From an uncultured Streptococcus sp. (GTDB lineage: Bacteria > Bacillota > Bacilli > Lactobacillales > Streptococcaceae): a stretch of DNA of 64,000 bases. A program made the position numbers and the translations under genes. Of this stretch, positions 8,040 through 47,385 are shown one piece after another; position 1 is the stretch's first letter; every line of letters starts with the position of its first letter. Where the stretch lies: positions 13,025 through 77,024 of the forward strand of contig CAUSCX010000002.1 of NCBI GenBank assembly GCA_963530385.1, given 5' to 3'. Under the pieces are notes generated by a model. That model was not told the origin of the DNA. It did not search any database and saw only the letters and a list, made by a program, of their open reading frames with translations.

Positions 8040-8110
8040 GGCGGTATAGCCAAGTGGTAAGGCACGGCTCTGCAAAAGCTTGATCGTCGGTTCAAATCCG
8101 TCTACCGCCT
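8040..8110 (+). tRNA. tRNA-Cys(GCA), prophage integration target
   Basis: GGCGGTA/TACCGCC acceptor, GCA anticodon, GGTTCAAATCC T-arm, U discriminator. Confidence 0.95.
8095..8110 (+). repeat. left att core AATCCGTCTACCGCCT
   Basis: Exact copy at 47370-47385. Confidence 0.9.
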
Positions 8111-42921: not shown

Positions 42922-43146
42922 ATGGGTAAAAATCAGCATGTTGTCCCTGCCAAAAATGGTGGTTGGAACGTGAAAGGTGCTGGCAATTCAAGAGCAACTG
43001 TTCATACTACTACAAAGAGTGAAGCTACAAATATTGCTAGACAGATTTCACGAAATCAAAGTTCCGAACTAATCATTCATGGCAAAGATGGGAAAATTCA
43101 AAGCCGTGACAGCCACGGTAAAGACCCATTCCCTCCTAAAGGCTAG
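42922..43146 (+). CDS. DUF2188-like protein
   Basis: HVVP...GGW.VK, IHGKDGKI..RDSHG.DP. Confidence 0.85.
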   Translation: MGKNQHVVPAKNGGWNVKGAGNSRATVHTTTKSEATNIARQISRNQSSELIIHGKDGKIQSRDSHGKDPFPPKG

Positions 43147-43391: not shown

Positions 43392-43595
43392 ATGACTAAG
43401 TTTGATTTGGCACCTTATCTAAATGCAGTTACAAACGAAGAGGACACTCTTCTAATCTGCAAAACTGAGCAAGGTGCATACATTGGCGATTTTAGCCCTT
43501 CATGCGATAGAGAAGATTTTGTGCTAACTTACGAAGACGTTTCTGTCTCTTTATCTTACGCACAGGTTCTTTCTGCAACTCTTTTAAGGGTTTAA
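43392..43595 (+). CDS. hypothetical protein on lysogenic strand
   Basis: AGAAAGGAGG RBS and TGCTATAAT extended -10. Confidence 0.65.
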   Translation: MTKFDLAPYLNAVTNEEDTLLICKTEQGAYIGDFSPSCDREDFVLTYEDVSVSLSYAQVLSATLLRV

Positions 43596-43836
43596 TCGCC
43601 GGCTTCAAATAGTCATTCATCCAAATGCTAAACAAAAATTGACACTGTCCAACCGTCCTTTTTGTTCTAGTGCTTGGGTGGATTTTTATTTGTCGGTAAT
43701 CTTCCCAAGCCAATTTATGTCCATATCCTTTCAGAATCTTTGTAAACAATTCAAAAGGTACTTCAAATGTAATCTTGTCTAGCCCAGTAGATTCTACATA
43801 ATCTTCTGGTAACTCAAACAGTTCTCTGTCTGTCAT
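43492..43836 (-). CDS. phage hypothetical protein
   Basis: GAAAGGAG RBS; first gene after cro. Confidence 0.65.
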   Translation of the reverse strand: MTDRELFELPEDYVESTGLDKITFEVPFELFTKILKGYGHKLAWEDYRQIKIHPSTRTKRTVGQCQFLFSIWMNDYLKPAIKPLKELQKEPVRKIKRQKRLRKLAQNLLYRMKG

Positions 43837-43886
43837 TTCCTACTCCTTTCCTATATGATTTAAAATCATATATTGTTGAAAATTTT

Positions 43887-44090
43887 TTATGTGACTTGCT
43901 TATTTATTCCAAGAATATCATCAGTAGACACATTAAAAAATAAAGCTAGACTAATAAGATACTCGCCTGAAATCTTAGTCTGGTCTTTTTCCCAGTTGCT
44001 AATAGATGTTTGAGTAACGCCTAATTTTTTTGCTAGTTCACGCTGTGACATCTTATTGTGTCTGGCTCTTAATTCTGCGATAGAGACCAT
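43887..44090 (-). CDS. Cro-like repressor
   Basis: MSQRELAKKLGVTQTSISNWE; divergent from cI. Confidence 0.9.
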   Translation of the reverse strand: MVSIAELRARHNKMSQRELAKKLGVTQTSISNWEKDQTKISGEYLISLALFFNVSTDDILGINKQVT

Positions 44091-44122
44091 ATGTGAATCA
44101 CTCCTTTCTTGATGATGATTAT

Positions 44123-44260
44123 ATTTTATATGATTTTAAATCTTGTGTCAAGTGTTTTATATGATTTATTTTCTCTTTTTTTAAAAAAAACGTTATTTTT
44201 GTATTTTATTTAAAACTTTTTTCTTATATACTTGATTTATAATCATGGTTCTGATATAAT
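44123..44260. promoter_or_regulatory. genetic switch: divergent promoters and operators
   Basis: Minus TTGACA-17-TAAAAT (44151-44123); plus TTGATT-17-TATAAT (44232-44260); TGATTTwwAATC operators near 44128 and 44230, plus one at 43853-43871. Confidence 0.75.
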
Positions 44261-44293
44261 TTACTTATCAAAAAACAAAAAAGGAGACATCCT

Positions 44294-45049
44294 ATGGAAC
44301 AATTGGGAGACCGAATAAGAAAATTGAGAGAAAGTCGTAATATGACACAGACTGAACTTTCAGAAATTCTTGGTATGAAAACCTATACTACTGTTTCGAA
44401 ATGGGAGAAAAACGAGAATTTTCCTAAAGGTAAAGACCTAAAGAAATTAGCAGAAATTTTCAACGTCACTTCTGACTATCTTTTAGGGCTATCAGACACT
44501 AAACTTGGAAAAATTACTACACAGAACGAACACCCTGAAATCCTAACCATCTACAACCAGCTTGAAGAACCAAAACAAGAAAAAGTCCTTGACTATGCTA
44601 CTGTTTTATTAAATGAACAAAACAACATGAAGACATTAACTGTCTTAGAAAAGTACAAAAACGACGAAGACTATATCACTGACTACGTCGAGGGCTTGGT
44701 TGCAGCAGGACACGGAACTTTCCAAGAAGATAACCTACACATGGAAGTTAGACTCAGAGCTGAAGATGTGCCAGAAAGCTATGACACCATCGCTAAAGTG
44801 GCAGGCGATAGCATGGAACCGCTTATAAAAGATAACGACTTACTATTTATTAAGGTTACTAGTCAAGTGGATATCAACTCAATCGGCATCTTTCAAATAA
44901 ATAGTAAGAACTTCGTCAAGAAACTGAAAAGAGATTATGACGGTTCTTGGTATCTTCAAAGTTTAAATAACGCTTATGAAGAAATTTATTTGACTGAAGA
45001 TGACGATATCAGAACTATAGGGGAAGTCGTGGATTTGTATAGGGGATAA
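44294..45049 (+). CDS. CI-like repressor (XRE + S24 peptidase)
   Basis: N-terminal HTH, VAAG cleavage site, GDSMEP, VKKL. Confidence 0.95.
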   Translation: MEQLGDRIRKLRESRNMTQTELSEILGMKTYTTVSKWEKNENFPKGKDLKKLAEIFNVTSDYLLGLSDTKLGKITTQNEHPEILTIYNQLEEPKQEKVLDYATVLLNEQNNMKTLTVLEKYKNDEDYITDYVEGLVAAGHGTFQEDNLHMEVRLRAEDVPESYDTIAKVAGDSMEPLIKDNDLLFIKVTSQVDINSIGIFQINSKNFVKKLKRDYDGSWYLQSLNNAYEEIYLTEDDDIRTIGEVVDLYRG

Positions 45050-45063
45050 GATTAGGAGGGGGA

Positions 45064-45504
45064 ATGAAAGAGGAAGAATATCTAAAAAATAGACTGAAAG
45101 GCCAGATAAACTGGTATGACAGCAAAAGTCAATGGCATCAAAAGTGGTATAAATGTCTAAAGTATGTCGAACTACTTCTCGGTTTTATGATTCCGATTTT
45201 ATCAGCTTGGGAGCCTCCGCATTTTTCGATTATATCAGCTATCTGTGCAAGTGGAATGCTTCTATGCGAAAGCGCTATTTCCTTATCAAAGCACCGTGAT
45301 AATTGGATTGACTATCGTAGAACGGCAGAATCATTAAAACATGAAAAATATATGTTTTTAACAGGAACTGGTGTCTATAAAAATGAAAACGATAGCTTCG
45401 CTTTGCTTGTTGAACGTTGCGAAACTATCATTTCAAGCGAAAATATAAATTGGGCAAATTTACAAACAGATACCGTACAAAGAAAGGAACTATATGACAG
45501 ATAA
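45064..45504 (+). CDS. SLATT/DUF4231 two-TM protein
   Basis: QINWY, two hydrophobic helices, W..YR..AE.LK.E. Confidence 0.85.
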   Translation: MKEEEYLKNRLKGQINWYDSKSQWHQKWYKCLKYVELLLGFMIPILSAWEPPHFSIISAICASGMLLCESAISLSKHRDNWIDYRRTAESLKHEKYMFLTGTGVYKNENDSFALLVERCETIISSENINWANLQTDTVQRKELYDR

Positions 45505-45892
45505 AATTTTTGTGAGTTATAGAGCAGATGATGAAGGCACTTTGCATAAAAACTTGCTAGTGGCTTGGTCAAGAAATGATCGTTTTTTCCCAGAAATTAA
45601 ATTTCATGATACCTCTATCGGAACTTCCATCAATTCGGTCAATGCAAACTATATCAAATCAGTAATAAAAGACCGAATAAAAGAATCAGATATCGTGCTA
45701 TGTCTTGTTGGCAAAAATACTGGAAACTCAGATTGGGTCAATTGGGAAATTGAAACAGCTTATCAACTAAATAAAAAAATCGTAGCCGTCAAAATTGAAC
45801 GATACTACGATACACCTAGTGCATTATTTGGAAAAGGTGCGAGTTGGGCCTTAGATTTTTCAAAAAACTCAATTTTAAGAGCTCTATCCTAA
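45494..45892 (+). CDS. TIR-domain protein, ThsB/DUF1863-like
   Basis: [24 protein letters not shown] with putative catalytic Glu. Confidence 0.88.
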
Positions 45893-46069
45893 AATCTCAT
45901 ATGTTTTTTCAAAAATATCTGGCTTAACTGGATATTTCTCTCCGTTGACACCAGTAATAATCCAATCTCCAGCAGAAGCTTTCATGACACCTTCTAAAGT
46001 TTCGATATATTGAACAGTTGATGTTTTTTCTGCTTCTACAACAACTGGGACCTTTCTAACTTTAACCAT
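45884..46069 (-). CDS. small PGDYG-like phage protein
   Basis: [44 protein letters not shown]; own promoter. Confidence 0.8.
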
Positions 46070-46099
46070 CTTAGTCACCTACCTGCTATTTTTAGAATT

Positions 46100-46129
46100 A
46101 TTATAGCACAGTTCCAAACGAAAAAGCAA
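46100..46129 (-). promoter_or_regulatory. promoter of PGDYG-like gene
   Basis: TTGCTT-18-TATAAT with extended TG. Confidence 0.6.
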
Positions 46130-46246
46130 AAAATCCCCACACTCGCCATCGCCAAACGTTGAGTGTGAGGAACTTCAGTATAAGAAGCAACCATTCAAAA
46201 GGTCGTTTTCTTATACCCATTTTATCAAAAAAGTGAGGTAAAAACA

Positions 46247-47314
46247 ATGGCATACTTTAGAAAAAGGGCGAACGGTTGGGAATATCGCATATCTTACAAG
46301 GATACAGACGGCAAATATAAGCAGAAATCAAAAAGCGGGTTCAAGACCAAGAAACTGGCTCAAGTTGCGGCAAGGGAGATAGAGGAGGGCTTATCCGAAA
46401 ATATCCTGACAGACAAAGATGTCACGCTTTATAATTTTGTAAAGACCTGGTCAGACGTTTACAAGCGTCCACATGTCAAGGATAAGACCTGGGATACATA
46501 CACCAAAAATCTGAAGCATATCAAAACGTATTTTGGAGACTTGAAAGTAAAGGATATAACACCCCTTTATTATCAAAAACGGCTCAATGAGTTTGGCGAG
46601 AAATATGCACAGGAAACCCTTGAGAAATTCCATTATCAAATCAAAGGTGCTTTAAAAGTCGCAGTCCGTGAGCAAGTGATCAGCTATAACTTTGCTGAAG
46701 ATGCAAAAGTGAAATCACAAATCGAAACCAGGTCAGAGGATAATGACTTTTTGGAAGAGGGTGAGTATAAGGCTCTAATTTCGTCCACACGCTCGAATAT
46801 CCAGTATGTGTCCTATTTTACCCTCTATCTCCTTTCAGTGACTGGTATGCGCTTTTCTGAGGCTCTAGGGCTTACTTGGGATGATATCGACTTCAAAAAT
46901 GGAATCATAGGCATAAACAGGTCCTTTGATTATTCAAAAACGCAAGATTTTGCTGATCTAAAAAATGAAACATCGAAAAGGAAAGTGCCAATCGATAAAA
47001 CCACGATTGAAACGCTGAAAACTTACAAGAAAAAATATTGGCAAGCAAACATAAAGAACCGTGTCTGCTTTGGTGTGTCCAATTCAGCTTGTAATAAGCT
47101 GATAAAAAGGTTAGTTGGTCGACCAGTAAGAAATCATAGTTTACGGCATACTTACGCATCGTACTTGATTTTAAAGGGCATTGACATTGTAACCATATCA
47201 AAGCTACTAGGACATGAGAGTCCAGATATAACCCTAAAGGTCTACTCGCACCAGATGGAAGCCTTGGCAGACAAAAACTTTGAGCAAATCAAAGAAATCT
47301 TCCTAATTGCATAA
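46247..47314 (+). CDS. int: tyrosine integrase
   Basis: TGMRFSE, HSLRHTYAS, LGH...T..VY; next to att. Confidence 0.95.
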   Translation: MAYFRKRANGWEYRISYKDTDGKYKQKSKSGFKTKKLAQVAAREIEEGLSENILTDKDVTLYNFVKTWSDVYKRPHVKDKTWDTYTKNLKHIKTYFGDLKVKDITPLYYQKRLNEFGEKYAQETLEKFHYQIKGALKVAVREQVISYNFAEDAKVKSQIETRSEDNDFLEEGEYKALISSTRSNIQYVSYFTLYLLSVTGMRFSEALGLTWDDIDFKNGIIGINRSFDYSKTQDFADLKNETSKRKVPIDKTTIETLKTYKKKYWQANIKNRVCFGVSNSACNKLIKRLVGRPVRNHSLRHTYASYLILKGIDIVTISKLLGHESPDITLKVYSHQMEALADKNFEQIKEIFLIA

Positions 47315-47369: not shown

Positions 47370-47385
47370 AATCCGTCTACCGCCT
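47370..47385 (+). repeat. right att core
   Basis: Duplicate of tRNA-Cys 3' end. Confidence 0.9.

Follow-up and report, generated by a model that had tools for sequence, protein, structure and literature searches.

We found that a prophage of an uncultured Streptococcus sp. carries, on the strand opposite to a SLATT-plus-TIR gene pair, a 61-aa PGDYG-like gene whose product is probably, by analogy with known prophage systems, the cognate inhibitor of a type VII Thoeris-like defence. The pair itself is already known; the novelty lies in the third gene. Coordinates below refer to the whole stretch of 64,000 nt that was analysed (the window), in which the relevant features are:

44294-45049 (+): cI repressor, with the Pfam domains HTH_3 and Peptidase_S24
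45054-45059 (+): AGGAGG, ribosome-binding site of the SLATT gene, 4 bases past the cI stop
45064-45504 (+): SLATT_1/DUF4231 effector, two-TM, ThsH-like, 146 aa (profile matches)
45494-45892 (+): ThsB-type TIR, 132 aa, with Glu85 at the catalytic position (profile and structure alignment)
45884-46069 (-): PGDYG-like (phrog_419) small beta-barrel, 61 aa, proposed cognate inhibitor (profile, model and linkage)
46076-46084 (-): AGGTAGGTG, resembling a ribosome-binding site, ahead of the small gene's ATG at 46069
46100-46110 (-): TGTGCTATAAT, extended -10 promoter of the small gene (perfect motif match)
46134-46171 (no strand assigned): terminator-like hairpin just upstream of the small-gene promoter (from its fold; putative function)
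46247-47314 (+): tyrosine integrase (domain match)
47370-47385 (+), with a copy at 8095-8110: 16-bp direct repeat, likely the att core (repeat comparison)

The SLATT and TIR ORFs overlap by 11 bp, and the TIR and small ORFs converge with a 9-bp overlap. The three ORFs, these overlaps, the AGGAGG just past the cI stop and the glutamate within the WVNWEI motif of the TIR had all been read from the letters in the original prediction, and each was confirmed. The small ORF may start at GTG 46078 (64 aa) or at ATG 46069 (61 aa); the ATG agrees with the starts of homologues and is preceded by AGGTAGGTG. The cassette sits at one end of the prophage, flanked by the S24-type cI gene and the tyrosine integrase gene, and the 16-bp repeat likely bounds an apparently complete element of ~39 kb that encodes lysis, tail, head, replication and lysogeny functions. 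GC content is 0.34-0.35 in the three cassette genes versus a prophage mean of 0.39, the nearest relatives are streptococcal, and the genome as a whole yielded a single match each to ThsB_TIR and to the small gene.

Two neighbouring features of the window are recorded here. A DUF2188 gene at 42922-43146 (+) is oriented against the early lytic genes; the type VII preprint counts DUF2188 among the candidate effectors of Thoeris, from a single island (10.64898/2025.12.03.692087). At 43392-43595 (+) and 43492-43836 (-) a second small gene overlaps a lytic-direction gene in antisense, and both genes belong to phage families of unknown function.

The 146-aa protein matched DUF4231 (82 bits) and SLATT_1 (51 bits) in Pfam and the NCBIfam SLATT_1 model NF033634 at 127 bits, against a cut-off of 41. 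Its hydrophobicity shows two modest stretches, with Kyte-Doolittle 19-mer peaks of 1.5 (residue 31) and 1.8 (residues 54-56), and it was matched by no PADLOC 2023 model. The 132-aa protein matched ThsB_TIR (PF08937, 66 bits) and PADLOC ThsB1 (E = 2e-13); its WVNWEI glutamate is E85, which aligns with that of ThsB structures, and a glutamate is retained there in all 67 distinct linked TIRs (110-160 aa, >100 bits). The same gene (45494-45892) also matches the PADLOC candidate PDC-M50B (E = 5e-13). Effectors of Thoeris types I, II and IV (SIR2-SLOG, Macro-TM and caspase) were absent beside the TIR gene, both of whose neighbours were otherwise identified; likewise, the lack of a SIR2-SLOG or Macro ThsA noted in the original prediction was upheld among the scanned cassette neighbours, where none was annotated.

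Type VII Thoeris has been described as a TIR and a SLATT effector, ThsH, in one operon. That work validated type VII in the form of operons made up of a TIR and an effector; three of its TIRs produced canonical cADPR upon infection, addition of cADPR halted growth, and defence was not blocked by Tad1 or MoTad2 (10.64898/2025.12.03.692087). A later preprint employs a type VII system as a cADPR reporter (10.64898/2026.04.20.719644). Architectural features of the type are found here, namely a ThsB-type TIR, an adjacent co-oriented SLATT effector and a glutamate at the catalytic position, and the pair would by its architecture be type VII Thoeris-like, the SLATT protein being likened to ThsH by domain and layout. 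The published set includes a Bacillus system and cADPR-dependent toxicity; unlike the present cassette, type VII is described, in the available parts of the source, as TIR plus effector with no antisense third gene or inhibitor. The original proposal that a TIR signal gates a SLATT membrane effector thus appears right by analogy, but it had already been described as type VII Thoeris. SLATT-plus-TIR pairs of firmicute phages were noted in 2022, close relatives of the present cassette among them (PMC9503650). The Javan281 and SN10 neighbourhoods in that paper belong to the same cassette family, and limitation of superinfection was proposed for them; the accessible description names HTH and zincin neighbours but not the convergent gene.

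We found that the small gene is tightly linked to the pair in phages. In phage records with this TIR it is adjacent and on the opposite strand in 23/23, many of these being duplicates. Among viral SLATT loci it was present in 9/9 of a first set and in 78 of the 80 examined out of 167 confirmed loci; the latter proportion needs to be interpreted cautiously, as neighbours of the small gene supplied the SLATTs for the A2 profile and there is redundancy among the 80 loci. Of the two loci without the gene, L159 is at the end of a contig and L122 has a truncated TIR. In the 78 linked loci the small gene lies after the TIR (42), between SLATT and TIR (35) or at a locus without a scored TIR (1); it is never in sense (0 of 78), and it is antisense in all of the >130 linked loci. 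Approached from the small gene, 41 of 80 loci adjoin SLATT plus TIR; the other 39 are without SLATT, and many of these copies stand in sense among holin, lysin, head and terminase genes. Four more loci show the same arrangement (L306, a repeat of L148, and L307-L309), two of them of high GC, and four streptococcal records reached via the small gene combine a SLATT with an unrelated TIR of ~197 aa. Contigs from RNA runs that carry other alleles at a staphylococcal site skip 1038-1101 bases, taking in all three L166 genes together; the three genes are exchanged as one unit. Linkage of the PGDYG-like gene to the SLATT-TIR pair, on which the original prediction had staked its refutation, is therefore strongly confirmed (23/23, 9/9 and 78/80).

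The three-gene cassette also occurs in streptococcal phage satellites (Javan277 and Javan365; L005 and L006). In Javan199 (L001, 2070-2893) SLATT and TIR are present and largely unannotated in GenBank, and the cassette may have been overlooked because of this lack of annotation.

A metagenome set was fetched with one SLATT, and 80 of 128 loci were kept, of which 51 have an adjacent TIR by profile. The small gene is present in 15 of these 51 and absent from 36; 19 of the 36 gene-free loci have at least 1.1 kb downstream. Where the order is TIR then SLATT, the gene is absent in 30/30. Several gene-free loci have RM, AbiTii, NACHT or TGT/QueC neighbours, and many lie in defence islands, while several metagenome loci with the small gene have integrases. 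From the 36 loci without it, we infer that the small gene would be dispensable for defence. Fourteen long loci with weak SLATT matches and no TIR have no small gene. Presence of the gene tracks SLATT clades, with 9 changes versus 40 in shuffles (quick tree of 121 rows, 90% dereplicated), and only L148 and L272, which have the gene, fall in a mostly gene-free branch (support 87). Because presence follows SLATT clades, a contrast of phage versus island is confounded with lineage. Seven genome regions were also examined: three from Bacillota (L299, L301 and L303) have the gene and no phage marker among the scanned neighbours, two (L300 and L304) are prophage-like, and two (L302 and L305) are without the gene. 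L219 and L272 are also without a clear phage marker.

Some of these neighbourhoods merit a separate record. At L234, L249 and L287 the SLATT/TIR genes stand beside TGT, Ogg-HhH or QueC genes, and Cap9-11-type Thoeris operons resemble these neighbourhoods (10.64898/2025.12.03.692087). At L299 (7508-8325) a chromosomal SLATT faces a PGDYG-like gene in tandem form, and the 16 kb examined contain no TIR. A complete three-gene cassette lies directly beside a type I-C CRISPR cas3 at L303 (3949-7936), where no phage marker was seen.

The small gene is protein-coding and under purifying selection: in 11 Streptococcus/Staphylococcus-type comparisons pN was 0.09-0.18 versus pS 0.38-0.77, with synonymous change near saturation. 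In most of 26 comparisons it is better conserved than either SLATT or TIR. A swap of the TIR is seen between L096 and the window, where SLATT is 93%, TIR 13% and the small protein 74% identical, and between L002 and the window the small protein is 77% and SLATT 40% identical. More generally, partner TIRs come from unrelated clades (13-28% identity) and the small protein stays at 52-88%. Since the TIR is exchanged among unrelated clades as SLATT and small protein persist, the target of the small protein should be something constant, either the signal or SLATT. Decaying cassettes are few. L024 keeps the small gene with only a remnant of the TIR, L015 has an intact small gene beside broken SLATT and TIR genes, and L231 retains the small gene next to a truncated TIR; its near-twins L122 and L206 share the truncation and lack the gene. 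These three lineages are anecdotal; they would fit an antidote that outlasts SLATT and TIR and is lost after TIR truncation.

The small protein scored 22 bits against PGDYG (PF14083), under the cut-off of 27, in a Pfam model that spans about two units, and it matched phrog_419 with E = 1e-24. AlphaFold2 confidently modelled (pLDDT 94.5) a small beta-barrel followed by a C-terminal helix, which resembles many uncharacterised viral PGDYG proteins (BFVD, TM 0.9); in the ESM Atlas the matching clusters were all either unnamed or PGDYG. Neither the protein nor its profile gave a credible match in PDB sequence searches, and Foldseek with the model gave no match at E <= 0.001. In VIA the best Z was 3.4 with the monomer and 4.1 with a natural tandem; these are weak matches to SH3/Tudor-like arrangements only. 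No sponge is among the Foldseek or VIA matches listed, an absence that is compatible with a shared fold. The 61-aa protein has a pI of 5.3 and is thus not basic. Sponges as a class form homo-oligomers whose pockets, located between subunits, carry positive charge.

Pfam gave no match of this protein to Tad2 (PF11195), Acb4 (PF13876) or Sequestin (PF21825), and PGDYG alone up to E = 0.1. A Tad1-, Tad2- or Acb4-like identity was not supported by the Pfam, sequence and fold tests run. Acb4 was dropped as a candidate, being PF13876 and of different topology. Lockin was likewise rejected: according to its authors it is without domain annotation and absent from INPHARED (10.1101/2025.07.12.664507), and the small-gene family matches 858 phage records. 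TadIV-1 is T4 Vs.3 (PMC13243611). Like Tad1, Tad2, Acb2, Acb4, Sequestin, Lockin and TadIV-1, the small protein is a short phage protein of a large family (22,452 clusters at E <= 0.001, at 50% identity), and the family is fused to Tad2 and Sequestin; it differs in Pfam family and in having no PDB sequence or fold match, and no sponge for canonical cADPR is reported in the available sponge literature. Among the best 120 longer homologues there are 8 Tad2 fusions, 2 Sequestin fusions and 14 DUF551 fusions, as well as fusions to zinc ribbons and Lar, and the domain is often duplicated (a natural tandem models at pTM 0.68). Sequestin was itself found by fusion to Tad2 and Acb4 (10.1101/2025.07.12.664507). 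The argument for a sponge from the Tad2 and Sequestin fusions is weakened here, because the domain fuses promiscuously.

The claim that the small gene has its own promoter was supported by the sequence, in which TGTGCTATAAT is a perfect extended -10. When the 90 bases upstream were shuffled 5000 times, a perfect match appeared in 0.6% of the shuffles and a relaxed one in 5.3%. A generic scan listed no promoter for the gene, because that scan needs a -35. Relaxed extended -10 motifs lie upstream of 47/95 linked versus 1/36 free-standing small genes and, by gene order, within 90 bases of 32/43 copies placed after the TIR versus 13/49 placed between SLATT and TIR. No plus-strand terminator-like site was found in 44000-46400, and none separates cI from the small gene; we infer that in the lysogen the cassette is carried by the cI transcript. 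In two of four runs RNA-library contigs extend over the cassette, strand not given, and the one raw-read RNA run did not cover it. Positions 46120-46250 fold at z -4.2; the hairpin at 46134-46171 is called terminator-like because a T run comes next on the minus strand, and it weakly matched Rfam Spy779816 (31 bits versus a gathering threshold of 67, all Rfam matches being sub-threshold). Palindromic ATGATTT(A/T)AAATCAT-like repeats around cro/cI, at 43852-43872, 44127-44142 and 44233-44246, are likely repressor operators. The sequence upstream of the small gene showed no such repeat resembling a cI operator.

This arrangement resembles that of Tha/Ith in the S. aureus phage 80alpha, where a defence gene under the cI promoter is accompanied by a small antisense inhibitor gene near the integrase. 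The ith gene has its own constitutive promoter, its transcripts and those of tha are reciprocal, the inhibitor is needed for induction, Ith-1 acts mainly as protein, and the antisense gene prevents the prophage from being killed by its own defence (PMC11087260). Tai/Ati is a second case of such a non-contiguous operon (PMC11364771). The present cassette occupies the same cI-integrase interval, and its small antisense gene likewise has a promoter to itself; by contrast, Tha is a HEPN RNase that uses no second messenger, and the paper on Tha/Ith does not mention TIR, Thoeris or DUF4231 (PMC11087260).

By this analogy, in the lysogen the cI transcript would extend over SLATT, TIR and the small gene, keeping the promoter of the last in check. 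An invading phage would activate the TIR to make an NAD-derived signal, which is most likely canonical cADPR, as known for type VII and extended here to this locus. The signal would cause SLATT to oligomerise, the membrane to fail and the infection to abort, as proposed for ThsH (10.64898/2025.12.03.692087). Upon induction cI transcription would stop, releasing the constitutive extended -10 promoter, and the 61-aa protein would neutralise the system and, as with Tha/Ith, spare the prophage its own defence. The signal is favoured as target because of the free-standing copies in lytic regions and the sponge fusions; that the small protein binds cADPR, as the TIR swaps and the Tad2 and Sequestin fusions suggest, is a tentative reading to which we give a little less than even weight.

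The next likeliest target after the signal is SLATT itself, bound directly in the manner of Ith. We consider this unlikely, although SLATT is a constant partner and L299 joins it to a tandem small gene with no TIR. SH3/Tudor-like barrels often bind peptides, and the weak VIA matches (Z up to 3.4 and 4.1) would suit such a role, as would the mainly protein-level action of Ith-1 (PMC11087260). Direct binding sits poorly, however, with the 77% identity of the L002 small protein where its SLATT is only 40% identical, with the 39/80 close homologues that lack a SLATT, many of them among lysis and head genes, and with the sponge fusions. Another possible target, to be bound and blocked, is the TIR enzyme. 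Phage inhibitors Tad3-Tad8 do bind TIRs or effectors (PMC13243611), and loss of the small gene in L122/L206 came after TIR truncation, but partner TIRs are only 13-28% identical while the small protein is 52-88% identical, and we regard this as very improbable. A constitutive buffer, setting a threshold against a leaky TIR in any host and unrelated to induction, would account for the gene-bearing cassettes that lie beyond any evident prophage (L299, L301 and L303) and for a strong promoter that fits the consensus and shows no cI operator. Such a buffer would have no need of antisense placement, yet the gene is antisense in >130 linked loci; island systems do without it, and the chromosomal cases may be prophage relics, so we hold this to be rather improbable.

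The original prediction had left the small protein either as a means of self-protection or as a missing ligand-binding subunit; the former is favoured, and the latter is weak because two-gene type VII is validated, 36/51 loci lack the gene and it never shares the strand of the pair. Near-universal linkage in phages, where no intact SLATT plus TIR was seen without the gene, is what one would expect of a required sensing or ligand-binding subunit. Such a subunit is nevertheless as improbable as TIR blocking, given the validated TIR-plus-effector operons (10.64898/2025.12.03.692087), the 36 gene-free metagenome operons, the separate strand and promoter, and retention of the gene after SLATT and TIR decayed (L015 and L024). 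Least probable of all is that the gene is a hitch-hiker, or that only its antisense promoter matters. In favour of this, the family is very large and common in phages (22,452 clusters and 858 records), but two gene orders with constant orientation, exchange as one unit and purifying selection on the protein argue against it. A cognate inhibitor thus remains our preferred reading of the gene.

A broader proposal, which we advance provisionally and with somewhat more doubt than belief, is that the PGDYG-like domain is an unrecognised phage nucleotide-sponge family, the first for canonical cADPR, whose lytic copies would defeat host Thoeris of type VII and of type VIII, in which a different effector responds to that same signal, and whose temperate copy would be wired antisense as an off-switch coupled to the life cycle. 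The small protein is a candidate for an open slot, that of an inhibitor or sponge of canonical cADPR signalling, given the reported failure of Tad1 and MoTad2 against type VII. If so, one of the commonest unannotated phage domains would gain a function, the non-contiguous-operon answer to autoimmunity would extend from single-protein defences to second-messenger immunity, a signalling immune system would be shipped with its own signal quencher, and a 61-aa cADPR binder would be at hand as a reagent. cADPR also signals in animals.

The literature searched contained no paper on PGDYG, and neither PF14083 nor phrog_419 occurs in the 12 papers searched for them. A search of titles and abstracts, with subscription journals and bioRxiv supplements outside its scope, gave no paper on the three-gene cassette. 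The accessible parts of the Acb4, TadIV-1 and RyDEP papers, of a 2026 sponge review that lists seven sponge families and of a sponge-diversity study do not name the small-gene family, and the sponge and Thoeris literature, to the extent available, contains no sponge or inhibitor of canonical cADPR. The conserved antisense gene might already stand in the supplements of the type VII preprint or in candidate lists from sponge screens. Four proteins of 1450-3740 aa (P0241, P0243, P0252 and P0285) contain 4-31 PGDYG-like repeats together with annexin-like and/or zeta-type kinase domains.
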